From a phage, in the sequence record PZ445407.1: a stretch of DNA of 47,731 nucleotides; one strand, written 5' to 3'. Position numbers and translations under genes: made by a program. The number at the start of each line of letters is the position of its first letter. Position 1 is the stretch's first letter. This document shows positions 20,102 to 45,555 of this stretch, piece after piece. Below the pieces are notes generated by a model that was given only the letters and a program-made list of their open reading frames with translations, was not told the DNA's origin and did not search any database.

Positions 20102-20144
20102 ATAGTATCGCATCCTTGCGAGCAGTGTTTAGCAATTCGTGCTA
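20102..20144 (-). promoter_or_regulatory. palindrome-type promoter on minus strand for small peptide and Cor-like operon
   Basis: Reverse complement reads TAGCA cgaat TGCTA + 22 bp + TACTAT + leader TACTCCATCGAAACGAAAC. Confidence 0.5.
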
Positions 20145-25120: not shown

Positions 25121-25135
25121 TAGCACAGATTGCTA
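25121..25135 (-). promoter_or_regulatory. palindrome TAGCA cagat TGCTA only ~22 nt upstream of tail fiber start codon (operator-like position)
   Basis: Perfect palindrome but no room for the usual spacer, -10 and leader. Confidence 0.4.
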
Positions 25136-25162: not shown

Positions 25163-25185
25163 AAAAAAACCTCCCGTGGGAGGTT
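25163..25185 (-). terminator. minus-strand terminator between primase and tail fiber
   Basis: hairpin cctccc-gtg-ggagg with A-run on plus strand. Confidence 0.5.
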
Positions 25186-26107
25186 AGTCTAATAACTCGC
25201 TTGCTTTGTATATTCGCTTTCTTATGCCTGACTTGAAAAAATTATCATCATTTGGTAATACCACATCAAGATTGCGATCGTCAGCAACAGCAAGTAATTC
25301 AAAATTATGGCGAGTACAAGCGATGCGTAACTTGTGGTTTCTAAGCGCGTAAGCAACCATTTCCATATTATAACTGGAGTGACAAACAAGTACGCAGCGG
25401 TTGCCAGTACCAAGATGAACGTGAACACCATCAATCCAATTGTCGACAAGATAAGCGTACTCATCATCTTTAAGAGAGCCAATAACAGCAACTGACTGGC
25501 GAGTGTAATCTTTTGCAGCATAACTAACATCTCCCTCTTCATTGATAAACATTACATTGCACATTTCCTCTGATATACCGTCACTATAAGCCATAAAGCA
25601 CGGTATTGCGTGTATTAGTTCGCCTGATTTTGCTCTACCAACATCAAATCCAAACTCGCTATAGATTCCCTCGTATGTACTGAGTGGGGTTGATTCTACT
25701 CTTTTGGTCCTTCCCATTATCTCCAGGCATCTTTCGTGGTCAATCTGAGCGCCCATCTTGTATGGTGATGTTCTTGATGCTTGCTTGTTTGCTTTGTTAA
25801 CCACCTCGACGGGGATTAGGTTTAACCACTCACCTAGAGCATCGATACATTCGCTGAACGACTCCCCTCGCAGTTTCTGGACCCAAAGAATTCCATCACC
25901 TGAGCCGCATTGGTTGCAAATAATACCACCATCACCAGGCTCGCTAACTTTGTCGGTCCATCTTGCGCGATCGTTTCCGCCGCAATAAATGCATGGTTGA
26001 TGCTTCTTGGTCTGGAAGAACTTTGGGTCAGCGCCGCAGATATTAATAAGTGCCTTATCCCACAGGCCGCGCATTCTTGGTAGAACCTCTTTCTTATCGT
26101 AGTGCAT
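25184..26107 (-). CDS. DNA primase (zinc-binding, putative)
   Basis: N-terminal Cys4 cluster (CIYCGG...CNQCG); replication region. Confidence 0.55.
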   Translation of the reverse strand: MHYDKKEVLPRMRGLWDKALINICGADPKFFQTKKHQPCIYCGGNDRARWTDKVSEPGDGGIICNQCGSGDGILWVQKLRGESFSECIDALGEWLNLIPVEVVNKANKQASRTSPYKMGAQIDHERCLEIMGRTKRVESTPLSTYEGIYSEFGFDVGRAKSGELIHAIPCFMAYSDGISEEMCNVMFINEEGDVSYAAKDYTRQSVAVIGSLKDDEYAYLVDNWIDGVHVHLGTGNRCVLVCHSSYNMEMVAYALRNHKLRIACTRHNFELLAVADDRNLDVVLPNDDNFFKSGIRKRIYKASELLD

Positions 26108-26190: not shown

Positions 26191-26379
26191 TTAAATTACA
26201 AAGTGATGAGTCATTCTTAGAGACAAAAAAGACTCAAGATACCCCTCAATTACTTCCTTTTTACCAGTTTTTTTGTTGTAGGCGTATGGAATTCCTCTGC
26301 TGTTATCAACTTTACCAACAAATTTGTCGCCATCAACGTTAAAGATTGCTACGAATTTACATTTAGGGAATTTGTTCAT
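26191..26379 (-). CDS. hypothetical protein
   Basis: ORF track; in minus operon. Confidence 0.3.
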   Translation of the reverse strand: MNKFPKCKFVAIFNVDGDKFVGKVDNSRGIPYAYNKKTGKKEVIEGYLESFLSLRMTHHFVI

Positions 26380-26428
26380 TTTGTATATCCTTGTTTAGTT
26401 TATCTGCTTTCGATGTGTTAACTATACC

Positions 26429-26914
26429 TCATCCATGAGATATGTCTTTAGCTTTTCGTGCTGCTTCGTTAGCAGCCTTAATTTTACGCCATGATCGACA
26501 TTCTGGTTTGGTTGCTAACTCGGATTCAGTAACCACACGCAGCATGTGACGCTTTTTGCAACGCAGCGTAAGAGGCTTTCCATTGCCGTCGAATTGCAGA
26601 TCTGGTCGGCAGAATGTAGCGCGAAAACCTTCTCCGGTTCGTTTGTAGTAGTTGTGAGATAGCTGAGCGCCACGTGCAGAGATCATGCCACGCTTAAACC
26701 ACTCTTCTACAGCCTGCGGCGTCACCTTTAACTGCTTTGCGATATTCGCCTTTGTGCCGAAGAAATCAAGGAGCATCTCAAGCCGCGCGCGTAGCCCAGC
26801 CCTTACCTCATCTTTCAAAACGTAGTAACCTGAAGGTCGTTTCCGCTGCTTTTTATCTTCAGTGCGGATGGTTCCGTTATTGCCGTTAGTGGTTCGCTTA
26901 TCAACTGCATTCAT
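26429..26914 (-). CDS. putative HTH DNA-binding regulator
   Basis: Segment IAKQLKVTPQAVEEWFKRGMIS resembles a helix-turn-helix; highly basic protein; divergent from helicase promoter. Confidence 0.45.
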   Translation of the reverse strand: MNAVDKRTTNGNNGTIRTEDKKQRKRPSGYYVLKDEVRAGLRARLEMLLDFFGTKANIAKQLKVTPQAVEEWFKRGMISARGAQLSHNYYKRTGEGFRATFCRPDLQFDGNGKPLTLRCKKRHMLRVVTESELATKPECRSWRKIKAANEAARKAKDISHG

Positions 26915-26926
26915 TTTATTACCTCA

Positions 26927-26968
26927 ATAGCATTTTTTGTTAAAAGTCATTCTGATTTGATGGTAGTA
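26927..26968 (+). promoter_or_regulatory. palindrome-type promoter for helicase (TAGCA-N5-TGTTA, ~21 bp, TAGTAT)
   Basis: Direct read; palindrome lies 13 bp from start codon of divergent HTH gene. Confidence 0.45.
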
Positions 26969-26971
26969 TTG

Positions 26972-27001
26972 TACTCAATTAAACGCTACAAGACAATTTT
27001 T
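26972..27001 (-). promoter_or_regulatory. sigma70-like promoter on minus strand (-35 TTGTCT, 17 bp, -10 TACAAT) for HTH/primase/tail fiber operon
   Basis: Read from reverse complement of divergent intergenic region; coordinates approximate. Confidence 0.35.
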
Positions 27002-27015
27002 ATAGGAATTTAGAT

Positions 27016-29010
27016 ATGTTGCCTATCGAGAAGCTGGTTGCCAACTTTGATAAAGAGAGAATTAAACAGATTCAGAAAGATTACCAGTTTGGCGAGATAA
27101 CACCTTACGAGTTCCAGTGCGTTACATTTGATGCAATTGGGAAAGCCATTGGCAAGTATGAGGCTCCATTTATCGCAGACCTTTCCGTGTCTGCGGGCAA
27201 GACAATAATTCTGGCTATGATTGGTAAGCGCATGGAGCAATTGGGGTTGCCTTATATGGTGCTCTCTCGCCAGTCAGAGATAATCAGCCAGAACTCAGAA
27301 GAGCTTCGCAACTTCGGCATCCGTAACAGCGTCTATTGCGCTGGTCTTAACGTTAAATCAGTTTACTACCCAACCATAGTTGCTAGTGAGGGTACGGCAG
27401 CCAACGGCTTGTTTAAGGGGCTTGGTGATTATGTTCCGGCAGTTATCGCTATCGATGAATGCCACATGGTCGATCACATGGATATCGTGGAAGCTGAAGA
27501 GAACGAAGAAACATTTGAGCAAATGAGCACAAAGAAAGGTGAGATGGTATTCAAGGATGGCGTTAACACTGGTTTGATTGGTACAGGTCGCGCACAATAC
27601 ACGCTAATAATTACCGAAATGAAACGTCGTTGCCGTGAGAAATACGGGCGGGAGCTTCGCATCTTTGGCCTTACTGGCAGCCCATATCGTAACAACGATC
27701 ATATCGTCGTTAGTAATCCAAACATCCGTGGTTTCTGGCGCAAGACGGTAATACAAGTACCAACCAATTACCTTGTTGATTTGGGGTTCGTTGTGCCAAC
27801 TGTTTACGGTGAGGTTGGCGATTTGGGTTACGATCTTAGTGAGTTTGCGCCAGATGGAAGTGACGGAATTAAGGATTTTAGCAAAAAAGAAATGGATGCG
27901 ATGGAGGAGAAAATCCACCAAAACCAATCAATGACTCAAAAGATTATGCAATTTGCCGCAAAGTTCATGGAGACTCGCAACGCAGCGCTTGTGACATGCT
28001 CTGGTAAGCGTCACTGTGAAGAAGCGGCAGCGGCGCTTCCTGAGGGTGTGACCTGGGCTATAGTAACCGACTCTACAGGTGAGAAAAAGCGCCGTGAGAT
28101 TCTGGCTGACGCTTCAGAAGGTAAGTATAAGTTCATCTTTCAGATTGGTTGCCTCACAACCGGAGTGAACGTCCCACCGTGGGATACATCAATCATTCTG
28201 CGCAAGGTTGGTAGCATCACGTTACTTATTCAGCTTTTGGGTCGAGGCATGCGAATTCTTAAGAAGAAGCATAAAGAAATGGGCATGGTTAAGGACGACC
28301 ACGTGGTTCTAGACTTCGCTGGAACACTTGACGACATGGCAGAGTTGTACTTTGACCCAATCATAGAGGAGGTGCAGGACCAGAAGTTTAAATCATCACG
28401 CAAGGGAAACGATGAGCCGAGGGTTTGCCCGGCCTGCAGCTATGAGAACTCACCATTCGCTCGTCGATGCAATAACGTAATTGACGGGAGGCGTTGTGAA
28501 CATTTTTTTAAATTTCGCTTATGTGAAGATATAGAGGACCACCAGACAAAAGTTACTGTTAAGAAAGGTTGTGGTGAGAAGAATGATATTGCCGCTAAAA
28601 ACTGCCGCTGCTGCGGAGAAATGCTTATTGACCCTAACGCAAAGTTGTCTGGAAAGATGTATCGAAAAGGTGACTGGTTGAGAGTTTACGGATTCAGTAT
28701 TGGGTTAACTAAAAACCAAGCCGGAATCGTTGCTCGCTATGAAATAATGGCTCACAGCGGGGATAGGTTTGTTGCTTACGAAACTTTCTTCCCAGAGAGT
28801 GACCATCGCGTTTGTTCCGTTAAGTGGAAGGCATTTTGCCAGGCGCACATCCAGAACAAAACAGAAGCATTTCGCATCGGAAGACTTCGAAACGCCAAAA
28901 TGATTATGACTAACGCAATTCAATTTCGTGAGCCAATGCGAGTGACTCATAGAAAGAACCAGAAGGGGCAGGACATTATTGCAAACAAATCTTTTACTAT
29001 GGATGATTGA
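27016..29010 (+). CDS. DExH-box helicase
   Basis: Motif II DECH (AIDECHMVDH), motif VI-like QLLGRGMR, C-terminal Cys clusters. Confidence 0.75.
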   Translation: MLPIEKLVANFDKERIKQIQKDYQFGEITPYEFQCVTFDAIGKAIGKYEAPFIADLSVSAGKTIILAMIGKRMEQLGLPYMVLSRQSEIISQNSEELRNFGIRNSVYCAGLNVKSVYYPTIVASEGTAANGLFKGLGDYVPAVIAIDECHMVDHMDIVEAEENEETFEQMSTKKGEMVFKDGVNTGLIGTGRAQYTLIITEMKRRCREKYGRELRIFGLTGSPYRNNDHIVVSNPNIRGFWRKTVIQVPTNYLVDLGFVVPTVYGEVGDLGYDLSEFAPDGSDGIKDFSKKEMDAMEEKIHQNQSMTQKIMQFAAKFMETRNAALVTCSGKRHCEEAAAALPEGVTWAIVTDSTGEKKRREILADASEGKYKFIFQIGCLTTGVNVPPWDTSIILRKVGSITLLIQLLGRGMRILKKKHKEMGMVKDDHVVLDFAGTLDDMAELYFDPIIEEVQDQKFKSSRKGNDEPRVCPACSYENSPFARRCNNVIDGRRCEHFFKFRLCEDIEDHQTKVTVKKGCGEKNDIAAKNCRCCGEMLIDPNAKLSGKMYRKGDWLRVYGFSIGLTKNQAGIVARYEIMAHSGDRFVAYETFFPESDHRVCSVKWKAFCQAHIQNKTEAFRIGRLRNAKMIMTNAIQFREPMRVTHRKNQKGQDIIANKSFTMDD

Positions 29011-29011
29011 T

Positions 29012-29431
29012 ATGAATATTACAGACAAAGTTGATTACATTGAGTTTTACCCGGGCCCGGTTAAGTCATGCCCCAAAGAGGACGACGAACAGATCTTTTG
29101 CTCTGATTGGGTTAAGTACCATTATCCTCAGATTATCTATTGGCATACCGTTAATGAGGGGAAGAAATCAATGTGCGCAGCCAGAAAGGATGCAGCAAAA
29201 GGCCTCCTTAAAGGCGTATCAGACTGCCTATTTCTAATACCTGAACCATTGCGAGGAAGGTATCCATTTGGCGCAATAGAGCTAAAGAGGGCAGGGAAAA
29301 CGCAGGCTAGTCCAGTCAGCGAAGATCAGAAGGCATTCCTGAAGAGCGTAAGAGAATCAGGCGGCTTCTCGGCTGTGGCCTACGGTCGTGAAGGTTTTCT
29401 TGCGGCGTTCAGAGAAATGATTTCAAAATAG
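29012..29431 (+). CDS. VRR-NUC-like nuclease (putative)
   Basis: D/E/K residues in DCLFLIPEP...GAIELK arrangement; start choice 29003 or 29012. Confidence 0.45.
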   Translation: MNITDKVDYIEFYPGPVKSCPKEDDEQIFCSDWVKYHYPQIIYWHTVNEGKKSMCAARKDAAKGLLKGVSDCLFLIPEPLRGRYPFGAIELKRAGKTQASPVSEDQKAFLKSVRESGGFSAVAYGREGFLAAFREMISK

Positions 29432-30075: not shown

Positions 30076-30272
30076 TTGGCATCTGCGTAAAAACAAATGG
30101 AAGTTTTACTTTATTCGATGAGTACGAGATTAATTTTGGCGATGATTTTTATTCAGACAAGATTGTAGTAATGAGCGATGATGGATGGAATTACATTATT
30201 GATTATCAAGGTGATGGCTACTACGGGTGCGTAGACGCGAAAGGAAAAGAAGTTAGTTTCTTGGTTGAATAG
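30072..30272 (+). CDS. hypothetical protein
   Basis: ORF track; stop TAG forms next promoter palindrome. Confidence 0.4.
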   Translation: MIGICVKTNGSFTLFDEYEINFGDDFYSDKIVVMSDDGWNYIIDYQGDGYYGCVDAKGKEVSFLVE

Positions 30273-30715: not shown

Positions 30716-30967
30716 ATGTTGGGTTTAGATTTTCAGCCAGAGCATTACGATTTGGTTCATGGGCAAAGCGGTGCGAAGTTTAGGGCGATACCTATTGCTG
30801 ACTGGTTCCCTCCTGACTATGTGGATGTGAACGCAAAAACTAAAGACGGAAAGTGGGTGCAGATTTACTACTCTCCAGCGTGCGGAAACCTTTGCATGAC
30901 CGACCTTGAGCGAAAGTTAGCAATTAGTGCGGAAGTGATAGGCTACTGGTTGAAAGAGGTTGAATGA
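30716..30967 (+). CDS. hypothetical protein
   Basis: ORF track. Confidence 0.4.
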   Translation: MLGLDFQPEHYDLVHGQSGAKFRAIPIADWFPPDYVDVNAKTKDGKWVQIYYSPACGNLCMTDLERKLAISAEVIGYWLKEVE

Positions 30968-31038
30968 CGAGCCTAATACTAGTAGCATCGTTACCACTGT
31001 TTAGCTTTACTATCTTATACTTTATCGCAATGAATTAA
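30964..31038 (+). CDS. hydrophobic micro-ORF (24 aa, MTSLILVASLPLFSFTILYFIAMN)
   Basis: Hand-translated; ATGA overlap with upstream stop. Confidence 0.2.
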   Translation: MTSLILVASLPLFSFTILYFIAMN

Positions 31039-31050
31039 GGAACTTATATA

Positions 31051-32181
31051 ATGGCAACTGCAAAAATTACCAACGAAGAACTGCGCGAAGAACTGGCTAA
31101 TGGCATGACCAACAAAGCTATCGCAGAGAAGTACGGAATGAATATTCGCAATGTCGAATTGCGTCGTAGTAAATTAGCTAAGAGTGGAGAGTTGCACGGA
31201 AACCCAGGTATCAAGAAGTTAGTTCCTGACGGTTATTTGGTCAAAGGTACGTCAACCATGATTGATGCGGATGGCAACGAGAAGATTCGCTGGGTTAAGA
31301 CCTCAATTGATAATGAGCGACTTGAGGTTTTAATGGAGCAAGCTCGAGAAGCATTCTGCTCTGATTTGCCAAAAGCAGATGCGGTAATCCACTCAGGTAA
31401 TGAGGTCAACTCTGAGTTAATGACTCTTTACCCTATTTTCGATATCCATATTGGCATGATGGCGCATCGCCATGAGTCCGGCGAAAATTATGACACGAAC
31501 ACCGCTGAGAAATTAATGGGATCATATTTTGACCATGCAATTTCCGTATCACCAGCCTCAGAGAAAGCCGTGATTTTAGTTGGTGGTGATTTCCTTCACT
31601 CCGATGGGTTGGAATCGGTAACTCCAGCAAGCGGACACTGCCTTGATCAAGATAGTCGATATGCCAAGTTAGTTTATGTTGCTATTCGCTCGATTCGTTG
31701 CGCCGTAGAGAAGATGCTTAAGAAGCATAAGAATGTCGAGATTCAGATTATAGAGGGCAATCACGACCAGAGTGGTATGATTTGGCTCCGTGCGGCAATG
31801 GCTGCATTTTATGAAAACGAGAATCGCGTGTTTGTTGATACCAGTCCGGCAATCATGCACAAGACGCGATTTGGCTCAACATTACTTGGTTACACTCACG
31901 GTCACACCATGAAGAAAGCCGAGGGTAGACTTGCAGCAATGGCTACCGACTACCGCAAAGACTTTGGTGAATGTGAGTTTGTTTACTGCCACTCCGGCCA
32001 TTTCCATCACGCAACTGTTACAGAGTGCACTCTTGGGATTGACGAGGTTCACCCAGCGCTGGCTAGTAAGGATGCGTATGCAGCTCGAGGAGGGTGGCGC
32101 TCATATCGCCAAGCTGCCGCAATCATCTATCACAAGGAGTTCGGTGAGGTTGGTAGGCATATTTATCGCCCAGGCATGTAA
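31051..32181 (+). CDS. calcineurin-like metallophosphoesterase with N-terminal HTH-like domain
   Basis: Motifs DIHIG..H, GGDFLH, GNHD, GHxH; N-terminal TNKAIAEKYGMNIRNVELRRSKL. Confidence 0.55.
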   Translation: MATAKITNEELREELANGMTNKAIAEKYGMNIRNVELRRSKLAKSGELHGNPGIKKLVPDGYLVKGTSTMIDADGNEKIRWVKTSIDNERLEVLMEQAREAFCSDLPKADAVIHSGNEVNSELMTLYPIFDIHIGMMAHRHESGENYDTNTAEKLMGSYFDHAISVSPASEKAVILVGGDFLHSDGLESVTPASGHCLDQDSRYAKLVYVAIRSIRCAVEKMLKKHKNVEIQIIEGNHDQSGMIWLRAAMAAFYENENRVFVDTSPAIMHKTRFGSTLLGYTHGHTMKKAEGRLAAMATDYRKDFGECEFVYCHSGHFHHATVTECTLGIDEVHPALASKDAYAARGGWRSYRQAAAIIYHKEFGEVGRHIYRPGM

Positions 32182-36450: not shown

Positions 36451-36476
36451 TTCACATCTCCCGTTTCAATGAGATG

Positions 36477-36519
36477 AATATACATGAAAAGCCCCGAAGG
36501 GATTTAGCGATTCGTGCTA
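36477..36519 (-). promoter_or_regulatory. palindrome-type promoter on minus strand with terminator-like hairpin in spacer
   Basis: Reverse complement: TAGCA cgaat CGCTA + 22 bp (contains cccttcgggg hairpin) + TATATT. Confidence 0.45.
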
Positions 36520-37357: not shown

Positions 37358-37373
37358 TTCGTCAGATTTATGG

Positions 37374-37458
37374 ATTGTTGCAGATATTGCAATGATTCAC
37401 ATGATTATTGCACATATAGCAATATTGCTTCAGATGCAATGATGTTTTTGATTGTTGC
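37374..37458. promoter_or_regulatory. cluster of ATTGCA/TGCAAT repeats flanked by direct repeat GATTGTTGC (operator-like)
   Basis: At least six TTGC(A) units within 85 bp of a non-coding region. Confidence 0.3.
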
Positions 37459-37602
37459 GAAAAGTGAAATGAAGGGGTGAGTGAGCGAATGATAGATGGA
37501 TGGACTACCATACAAGTTGATTTTGATTCTTCTTGAGCAACTTTGCGCATACGCGTTATAAAGGTTATGCCATGTAGATGAAATCTCACTCCGCAGGAAT
37601 CG

Positions 37603-37700
37603 TGTACGCCTATCACGCAGGATTACGCAATGGTTACGTAATAATATCTATATATATCAACCTTTTAGTGTTATTATTATTATTATTATTATATACGTGT
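37603..37700. repeat. iteron/AT-rich repeat element copy B (same core, (TTA)7)
   Basis: Direct repeat of copy A; second short conserved block TTACATTGAGCTATA at 37848..37869 vs 20429..20449. Confidence 0.6.
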
Positions 37701-37753
37701 ATATAGTGTAGATAGTGGATATTGGATATTGCGATAGTTTTCTATGATTTTTT

Positions 37754-37786
37754 CCTACACTTGTAGGAATGTGACTACACTGTAGG
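37754..37786. promoter_or_regulatory. two tandem palindromic sites CCTACA-(N1-2)-TGTAGG-AAT (operator-like)
   Basis: cctacacttgtaggaat and ctacactgtaggaat read directly. Confidence 0.35.
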
Positions 37787-37917
37787 AATAAATAGGCATA
37801 TATGGGCCACCCCTCCATAAAAACTTATCTACAATCTGTACACGGCTTTACATTGAGCTATATCTGGGGTTGGTAGCTGAAAAGCGTAAATAAATTGAAT
37901 TCAACCACAAATAACGC

Positions 37918-37946
37918 TTGATAACATGTAACCTCGATGATATTAT
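37918..37946 (+). promoter_or_regulatory. sigma70-like promoter (-35 TTGATA, 17 bp, -10 TATTAT) for 37987..38508
   Basis: Hexamers read directly. Confidence 0.45.
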
Positions 37947-37986
37947 GCACCCATATTAACGAAGGCAACAATCAGGAGTAATATCT

Positions 37987-38508
37987 ATGTCGAATCGAAT
38001 TCAGCCAGTAAGCCTTGGTGATGTTATCCGCTACATGGCCAAGCAGGCACTTAAGACTGACAACCGAACTTTTCATGTCCCAATCCATCTTATAGCTCGC
38101 CAGGTGTACGGACTAACGTCTGATGATATGGGCCGAATCAGCACTGAAGATCTCGAGACTGGTGGCAAATACAGCTTGGCAAAGTTGAAAGCGTCATATG
38201 TCTCTAACACAGTTGCAAGGATGCCGGAGATTCAGGAGGCGAACGTTCGGGCCAAGCTATCAATCAAGGACGGAGACTTCGGGGATGATGTTGATGTTCG
38301 ATGCGCATACATCACCTTGGTAGATGGGGCAATTCAGAAAGGAAAGAGAGTGAAGGCCAACAACCAGGTTGCAGAGAAGGCGGTGAACGACTTTAAGGAT
38401 AGAATCCTCAAGCTAATGCCATCCGTGACTGAGTTTGAAGGAGGCGAGATCACTGGAGCCATTAAGGCAATTAAGATGTACCAGGAAATGATTAAGGAGA
38501 CAAAATAA
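37987..38508 (+). CDS. hypothetical protein
   Basis: Behind canonical sigma70-like promoter. Confidence 0.45.
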   Translation: MSNRIQPVSLGDVIRYMAKQALKTDNRTFHVPIHLIARQVYGLTSDDMGRISTEDLETGGKYSLAKLKASYVSNTVARMPEIQEANVRAKLSIKDGDFGDDVDVRCAYITLVDGAIQKGKRVKANNQVAEKAVNDFKDRILKLMPSVTEFEGGEITGAIKAIKMYQEMIKETK

Positions 38509-41568: not shown

Positions 41569-41610
41569 TAGCACGAATCGCCAAAGCCGCTCCGGCGGGT
41601 TTTGTTATAG
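41569..41610 (+). promoter_or_regulatory. palindrome-type promoter variant with terminator hairpin in spacer (TAGCA-N5-CGCCA, TATAGT)
   Basis: Direct read; hairpin ccgc tccg gcgg + T-run inside spacer. Confidence 0.4.
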
Positions 41611-45482: not shown

Positions 45483-45486
45483 ATTA

Positions 45487-45510
45487 GAGCCCCTTAATTG
45501 GGGCTTTTTT
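45487..45510 (+). terminator. rho-independent terminator before terminase genes
   Basis: agcccc-ttaatt-ggggct + TTTTTT. Confidence 0.55.
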
Positions 45511-45555
45511 ACGCCTGTAACATGGTATAATATAACATCAACAAAGGAGGATTAA

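Follow-up and report, generated by a model that had tools for sequence, protein, structure and literature searches.

The stretch of DNA analysed here (47,731 nucleotides, hereafter the window) is the genome of an Rtp-like coliphage of the Drexlerviridae (T1-like phages); it matches Rtp-like phages of this family along its whole length, with an identity of 89% to JeanPiccard and of 83% to Rtp. In the replication module, between the genes for primase and helicase, lies an ORF of 161 aa (26429..26914, minus strand), which starts with an ATG at 26914 and was confirmed to be a real gene; a Shine-Dalgarno sequence, GAGGT, can be read ahead of it at 26921..26925 on the same strand. Its orthologues are Rtp52, T1 gp23 and TLS gp57, for which the existing annotation goes no further than "putative transcriptional regulator". 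The protein is homologous over its full length to phrog_2856 (E=3.4e-83, aa 1-157), with an identity of 94-96% to the regulators of the closest (Rtp-like) relatives and of 52% to T1 gp23. Downstream of the regulator, on the minus strand, are a 62-aa ORF (26191..26379) and the primase (25184..26107), and divergent from it is the gene of an ATP-dependent helicase (27016..29010, plus strand). This order, with the primase on one side of the regulator and the divergent helicase on the other, is kept in the window, in T1, in Vibrio phage Vc1, Pseudomonas phage Motto and Klebsiella phage KP1801, as well as in a divergent metagenomic contig (L087).

The initial annotation had described the ORF as encoding a basic, HTH-like protein, and it was found to be a genuine Cro-type HTH protein with a pI of 10.3. 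Its Cro/XRE HTH core (aa ~35-102) has the all-alpha Cro fold, and is accompanied by an N-terminal arm (aa 5-24) that carries the invariant motif DKRxxNGNNGTxRxxDxxxR and is predicted to be disordered, by a conserved C-loop (aa 96-120), and by a C-terminal helix which is lineage-specific. The match to the Pfam family P22_Cro (PF14549) was sub-threshold, scoring 26.1 bits against a gathering threshold of 30.2 bits (E=7e-6) and covering aa 48-72 only. In an exhaustive profile search the core (aa ~40-117) was linked to short Cro/YdaS-like proteins, which are ordinary members of that kind, 80-100 aa in length and without the N-terminal arm. The full-length architecture forms a small, compact family, with P0130 and P0132-P0134 as its distant full-length relatives; it was found in 824 phage records and 138 protein clusters, essentially all of them Drexlerviridae, and a scan of bacterial genomes returned no bacterial or prophage copy except for one phage-like contig. 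The Cro protein of Jerseyvirus was also considered as a link to the regulator and was rejected as unrelated.

Conservation is spread very unevenly over the protein. The N-terminal arm, in which nine of the 20 positions are invariant, has a mean entropy of 0.72 bits, and the C-loop, with seven of 25 invariant, one of 0.82 bits. The recognition helix (helix 3, about aa 65-75) has a mean entropy of 2.25 bits and not one invariant position out of ten, making it the most variable segment of the protein; between genera its sequences are nearly unrelated, as in PQAVEEWFK, NQTVQGWKE, CVRLTNAYR and NPLEYREMI.

In the gap between the regulator and the helicase lies a promoter box, TAGCATTTTTTGTTA, which points to the helicase and is one mismatch away from TAGCA-N5-TGCTA. 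A palindrome had previously been placed here at 26927..26941; it is present and 13 nt (26915..26927) away from the ATG, with its real coordinates being 26928..26942 on the plus strand. Exact copies of TAGCA-N5-TGCTA occur seven times in the window against 0.02 expected, and 17 copies are found against 1.9 expected when one mismatch is allowed, numbers that were reached by no shuffle in either case. Family-wide, the box is part of a module made up of TAGCAC-N3-TTG(C/T)TA, 22 nt and a -10 hexamer, with no -35. When the sites were aligned they read aAATAGCAC-N3-TTG(C/T)TAAAa (the consensus box is given as AAATAGCACGAATTGCTAAAA), followed after 22 nt (21 to 23 in a few) by a TATAAT-like hexamer and a conserved leader (..CATCgAAACgA..GAGG). 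A weight-matrix scan of the window returned 16 instances of the module on both strands, among them those at 29429, 42187 and 43335 (plus) and at 20144 and 36519 (minus), and two more with shifted spacing. In the 16-18 promoters of the window, and equally in five other genomes, the -10 begins 29-30 bp downstream of the box centre, which brings the latter near -42 of the predicted starts. The consensus has no conserved bases 16-18 nt from the -10, where a -35 was looked for, the TTGCTA half being at 22 nt. The box is also oriented and asymmetric, its upstream half, TAGCAC, being nearly invariant and its downstream half degenerate.

The module is also found in T1, Vc1, Motto, KP1801 and L087, so that the box is present at 1.8-4.5 copies per 10 kb in all six of the regulator-bearing genomes (the window included), and no box was found in Jerseyvirus or Dhillonvirus, both of which are without the regulator. 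So far, box and regulator are both universal in the Drexlerviridae and confined to them. The same element was previously reported (German, Kropinski et al. 2024, PMC11447400) as a 21-nt direct repeat, aaATAGCACnnnTTGnTAAAA, of which phage TLS has 18 intergenic copies. The authors of that work noted it in T1, Rtp and Rogue1 as well, did not name a protein that binds it and left its function open, proposing a stoperator, an enhancer or an UP-like element. The fixed 22-nt link to the -10 was noted here and not in the TLS paper.

Several further regularities were seen around the boxes. The three central bases fall into a few classes (GAA, TTT, TAA, AAA) in the window and in L001-L005, likewise in TLS, and in all 85 loci compared the helicase promoter has a box of the T-run class. 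At the 16-18 sites of the window the leader (TTACCCCATCgAAACGA..GAGG) is conserved 3' of the -10, and just 5' of the -10 there is a G-rich element (GGATGG or GGGGTA) which often forms an inverted repeat with the leader, bracketing the -10. A similar leader, ATCGAAACGAGAGGAG, stands 3' of promoters in Jerseyvirus Shelanagig (L086). That phage also has a palindrome of its own, TAATAG-N4-CTATTA, in five copies (15199, 27368, 30681, 36449 and 37544), of which at least the one at 37544 lies across the -10 in a canonical TTGAC(A/G) promoter, an operator-type arrangement that is unlike the box layout. GC-rich, terminator-like hairpins were found in the 22-nt spacer between box and -10, with their T-run merging into the -10, at 36480..36519 (minus) and 41569..41610 (plus) of the window and many times in L001-L005; a hairpin inside the spacer would mean that termination of the upstream transcript and re-initiation are packed into about 45 bp. 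Readings of the module as a sigma32 promoter (CCCCAT in the leader), as an UP-element or as a MotA box were rejected on spacing or position, as was a sigma54 promoter, the module having AG where GG is needed, a spacing 2 bp shorter and its box 22 nt upstream of the -10.

At the regulator/helicase gap two promoters can be predicted back to back. The helicase promoter has its -10, TAGTAT, at 26964..26969 (plus strand), 21 nt after the box, and no -35 at 16-18 nt, and it is this box promoter at 26928 that is predicted to drive the helicase gene. The regulator promoter has a -10, TACAAT, at 26968..26973 and a -35, TTGTCT, at 26991..26996 (both minus strand) with a spacer of 17 nt, its -10 overlapping that of the helicase by 2 nt to form a bidirectional core; in phage SU57 a BPROM promoter was found at the same spot. 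The initial annotation had put the palindrome at about -42 of the helicase promoter and over the 5' end of the HTH gene, and both positions hold: the box centre (26935) is at about -41 relative to a start predicted near 26976, which is the distance of a class-II activator from the helicase -10, and the box lies in the 5'UTR of the regulator, between about +20 and +34 of the predicted transcript. The divergent -10 elements overlap as well, and should the protein bind the box, this layout would allow self-regulation. The 13 bp between the palindrome and the start codon, which had been put forward as a further pointer to autoregulation, does not count as independent evidence, since such an adjacency follows from a -42 box and a short leader being packed into a divergent gap of ~100 bp.

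The layout was kept in 85 of 85 related loci, counts that are not independent as the loci are phylogenetically related. Across them the regulator-sense -10 is TATAAT in 70, the commonest -35 is TTGTCA (37 loci), and no box was found upstream of the regulator-sense -10 or -35. The regulator-sense -10, 22-23 nt from the box, merges with the helicase -10 into a single 7-bp block, TATTATA. For most genera this predicts divergent starts at a distance of 18 bp (about 15 bp in the window), and 18 bp is reported as the commonest start spacing at bacterial bidirectional promoters (PMC12825309). The same work reports that an activator of one direction of such a promoter represses the other through competition for polymerase, from which it follows that activation of the helicase promoter should silence the regulator. 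In TLS, P57, the promoter of gp57 and the equivalent of the one in the window, was one of only three canonical sigma70 promoters retrieved in a rigorous search of the intergenic regions (PMC11447400); a canonical sigma70 promoter fits a master regulator that is made early.

Like the helicase, the genes on the other side of the regulator appear to have a box promoter. A second one, consisting of CAGCACGAAAAGCTA (26463..26449), 22 nt and TATAGT (26426..26421), occupies 26421..26463 on the minus strand and starts within the last codons of the regulator ORF; it is predicted to serve the 62-aa ORF and the primase and has a counterpart in DR10 of TLS. The regulator ORF is thus bracketed by two box promoters that both point away from it, towards helicase and primase, which leaves it as the only gene of the block to rely on a canonical promoter alone. 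A lineage-specific second operator was also looked for in the regulator-helicase gap, and no general pattern emerged, a clear one being present in T1 only. There, at 36463..36500 (L001), a perfect 9-bp inverted repeat, AACGTTTAC-N20-GTAAACGTT, brackets the shared regulator/helicase -10; neither the window nor Webervirus shows this repeat.

With its fold, promoter architecture, conservation and co-distribution with the box established, we infer, at somewhat less than an even chance, that the ORF at 26429..26914 encodes an early transcription factor that is specific to the Drexlerviridae and acts at the boxes, in binding, activation, timing and feedback alike. In the proposed sequence of events the regulator would be transcribed by unaided host sigma70 RNA polymerase from TTGTCT-17-TACAAT, whose -10 overlaps that predicted for the divergent helicase promoter. 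The regulator, probably as a dimer, would then occupy the TAGCAC-N3-TTG(C/T)TA boxes near -42 of about 18 promoters that have no -35, and would recruit polymerase there in the manner of a class II activator. At its own locus, polymerase recruited towards the helicase would exclude the opposite orientation, and the bound protein would sit within the transcribed leader of the regulator (about +20 to +34). Exclusion of polymerase together with a protein bound on the leader would make the synthesis of the regulator self-limiting.

The idea that this HTH protein is the regulator of the palindrome promoters, as it was initially suggested, draws its strength from promoter logic and co-distribution, and falls short at the covariation that might have been expected between helix 3 and the box. 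The rigid distance of 22 nt between box and -10, in promoters without a -35, implies that they need a helper. That the helper is a separate DNA-binding protein and the box not part of a recognition element of the polymerase is indicated by boxes which stand at operator-like positions with no -10 at 22 nt. One of these (25121..25135, plus strand) lies after the primase terminator and overlaps a predicted late-gene start; read on the minus strand, it follows a TACAAT at a distance of 6 nt and precedes the ATG of the tailspike gene by 22 nt. The same layout was found in T1 (34903 of L001) and L087 (5076..5090), the boxes of the three genomes being 6-8 nt after TACAAT, TAAAAT or TATAAT and about 21-24 nt before the ATG of a tail-fibre or tailspike gene. 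Among the non-structural genes common to the window, T1, Vc1 and Motto, an HTH signal was limited to the regulator and a phosphoesterase, and the regulator is the only recognisable transcription factor common to all T1-like (Drexlerviridae) phages. A GntR-like protein of Vc1 and Motto was tried as a universal binder and rejected, as it is absent from the window.

The box never changed when it was compared with helix 3 in five genomes, in 79 IMG/VR loci and in P0106, at 39% identity the most divergent homologue. A box that stays constant next to unrelated recognition helices, that of P0106 included, gives no positive support to the regulator and counts against a readout by helix 3. The residues of helix 3 are not conserved together with the box (none of ten invariant), and only the N-terminal arm (nine of 20) fits that pattern. 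With the recognition helix unconserved, the box would most likely be read through the invariant basic arm and the conserved core, and a classical helix-3 readout is unlikely. To our knowledge there is no precedent for a disordered N-terminal arm that supplies such specificity. The asymmetry and the strict orientation of the box are, moreover, more than a plain symmetric dimer requires, and count against the regulator as its reader. Taken together, binding of the box by the 161-aa protein appears to have nearly, but not quite, an even chance of being true, and we regard the protein as a reasonable candidate for the one that switches on the T1-like box promoters. A more specific version, which we put forward as speculation and consider unlikely as a whole, is that of a novel type of phage activator, a Cro-fold scaffold whose helix 3 has escaped selection, with the invariant disordered arm either reading the TAGCAC box or clamping polymerase 22 bp from the -10, and so flipping the regulator's own bidirectional promoter towards the helicase. 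If the arm does work in this manner, a single binding event would launch the replication genes and end the synthesis of the regulator. Our search of the literature found no transcriptome, start-site map or expression data for any Drexlerviridae phage, and no biochemical study of a Drexlerviridae regulator.

The same contrast between a hypervariable recognition helix and an invariant box is what lineage-specific operators would produce. It was also considered that the protein acts early, as a Cro-like regulator or as an accessory of replication, on a different and lineage-specific target, for instance as one that shuts off early promoters or binds near the origin, the boxes being read by another phage protein such as a small core protein. 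The short relatives of the regulator, ordinary Cro/YdaS-like proteins devoid of the arm, and the place of its gene between primase and helicase would both agree with this, and six conserved small core proteins to which no function has been assigned are possible binders as well. Nonetheless, a detectable DNA-binding domain was found in none of these six, the regulator-helicase gap holds no alternative conserved lineage-specific operator (the extra inverted repeat being clear in T1 only), and the invariant arm and the dedicated sigma70 promoter would both be left unexplained. A different target is in our view rather unlikely. A reader of the box could also come from the host, in which case an essential component, be it RNA polymerase or a DNA-binding protein, would recognise the box and the regulator would be dispensable for the box promoters. 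The invariance of the box across phages reported on Escherichia, Klebsiella, Vibrio and Pseudomonas is as expected of a conserved host partner, and many box promoters stand ahead of small, early-looking genes; should these fire at time zero, their binder must pre-exist in the host. Yet a host activator at work from time zero would make it hard to rationalise why the regulator has a conserved strong sigma70 promoter that faces a box. The downstream half of the box, TTG(C/T)TA, does resemble a -35 hexamer, but at 22 nt from the -10 it is too far away for sigma70, and the likeness of the whole box to the sigma54 element TGGCAC-N5-TTGCA is offset by the absence of the GG and of the obligatory spacing and by a position of -49 to -35 instead of -24/-12. 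We know of no E. coli factor that has the box as its consensus, and the box was absent from the other coliphages tested. T1-resistant mutants obtained in classical selections are known for fhuA and tonB only, and not for a regulator, which argues against a dispensable host factor; overall, we hold a reading by the host to be distinctly unlikely.

The second HTH protein, a phosphoesterase ("DNA repair exonuclease"; 31051..32181, plus strand) with an N-terminal HTH resembling sigma70 region 4 and LuxR, had been named in the initial annotation as an alternative; it would bind the box as an activator through this HTH. The domain itself is well supported, with a Sigma70_r4_2 match in five of the five orthologues tested (best E=5e-7), a weak match of the N-terminus to LuxR-type HTH structures of the SsrB/EsrB kind, and a well conserved recognition helix in which R33, V35, E36 and R38 are invariant; activators of the LuxR type, furthermore, classically act on palindromes near -42. 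What weakens the proposal is the distribution of the family, which takes in 2017 phage records and extends to Jerseyvirus, Kagunavirus and Dhillonvirus. Full-length homologues with near-identical reading residues (R33, N34, V35, R38) are encoded by Jerseyvirus Shelanagig and Dhillonvirus McMelon, neither of which has a box, and for this presence in box-free phages the phosphoesterase was rejected as the main candidate. In the window its gene, located downstream of the box promoter at 30270, also lacks a separate promoter, which would create a bootstrapping problem for the activator of that promoter, and we consider its role as the box-binding activator very improbable.

Among known systems, the regulator comes close in kind to the all-alpha Cro proteins (P22 Cro, N15 Cro and Xfaso1 Cro; PF14549) and YdaS (PF15943). 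Unlike Cro, it is twice the size, with an invariant basic arm of 20 aa and a C-terminal extension that are both absent from Cro; the phage is virulent and so has no cI partner, and the proposed role is activation at -42 rather than repression. The consensus operator of N15 Cro, TTATAGCTAGCTATAA, has the core ATAGC in common with the box, and the helix of N15 Cro (T-P-G-A-x-Y-Q-W) resembles that of the regulator (T-P-Q-A-V-E-E-W), but other genera are without such a helix and the half-sites of the box are 5 bp further apart than those of the N15 operator, so that this likeness is suggestive but weak as a lead. Class II activators, including CRP and FNR at -41.5, lambda cI at PRM, and LuxR and TraR at about -42.5, likewise use a dyad-like site near -42, over a missing -35 and in fixed phase with the -10. 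In comparison with these the box is asymmetric and strictly oriented, and its spacing is unusually rigid (22 nt mostly, 21 to 23 in the rest). Phage factors that let the host sigma70 polymerase use middle or late promoters having a -10 and no -35 are known from phage Mu (Mor/C) and T4 (MotA/AsiA). Neither is related to the regulator in sequence or fold, the MotA box being at -30 and requiring AsiA as a co-factor, and the HTH of Mor/C being C-terminal. Divergent -10 elements that are shared or abut, as at the regulator locus, are found at PacrA/acrR with SoxS/MarA and at the early/late switch of phi29 p4; here, in contrast, the repressed direction would encode the activator itself, and the predicted overlap of the -10 elements in the window is only 2 nt.

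Other features of the window and its relatives were noted along the way. The fusion of an HTH of ~50 aa (31051..31260, plus strand, in the window) to a phosphoesterase is widespread, occurring in Drexlerviridae, Jerseyvirus, Kagunavirus, Dhillonvirus and Vibrio phages. The gap ahead of the phosphoesterase gene is filled by an unlisted, strongly hydrophobic micro-ORF of 24 codons (MTSLILVASLPLFSFTILYFIAMN; 30964..31038, plus strand), and small hydrophobic ORFs are present in the same gap of T1 and Vc1. Between the leftward and the rightward arms of small genes, the non-coding region 37360..37990 has a (TTA)n run, several repeats both direct and inverted (e.g. CTACACTTGTAGGAAT / CTACACTGTAGGAAT), a perfect palindrome, AGCAATATTGCT, which amounts to TAGCA-type half-sites at N4 spacing, and at 37918..37946 a strong sigma70-like promoter with an extended -10 (TTGATA-17-TATTAT); the region may be an early promoter, an origin or a pac region. 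Ahead of the small-terminase gene come a terminator hairpin, a TATAAT and the conserved leader (45483..45555, plus strand), with no box and the hairpin in its place, and the T1 gene has a box right after a -10-like hexamer (8363 of L001).

The gene and the box were each on record before; their pairing, the bidirectional switch and the hypothesis on the N-terminal arm are new. Although T1 belongs to the classic set of seven T phages, its transcription programme is essentially uncharted, and the repeated box was described only in 2024. Should the regulator turn out not to bind it, the invariant box would still point to another factor that is worth finding. Pairing the box with a specific early protein would provide a family of more than 800 sequenced phages, among them many candidates for therapy against Klebsiella and E. 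coli, with its first regulatory circuit open to testing. If the proposed role of the regulator is true, it would offer compact and strictly phage-dependent promoters for engineering, and the regulator/helicase gap of the Drexlerviridae would be a natural bidirectional promoter that serves as a self-limiting switch.
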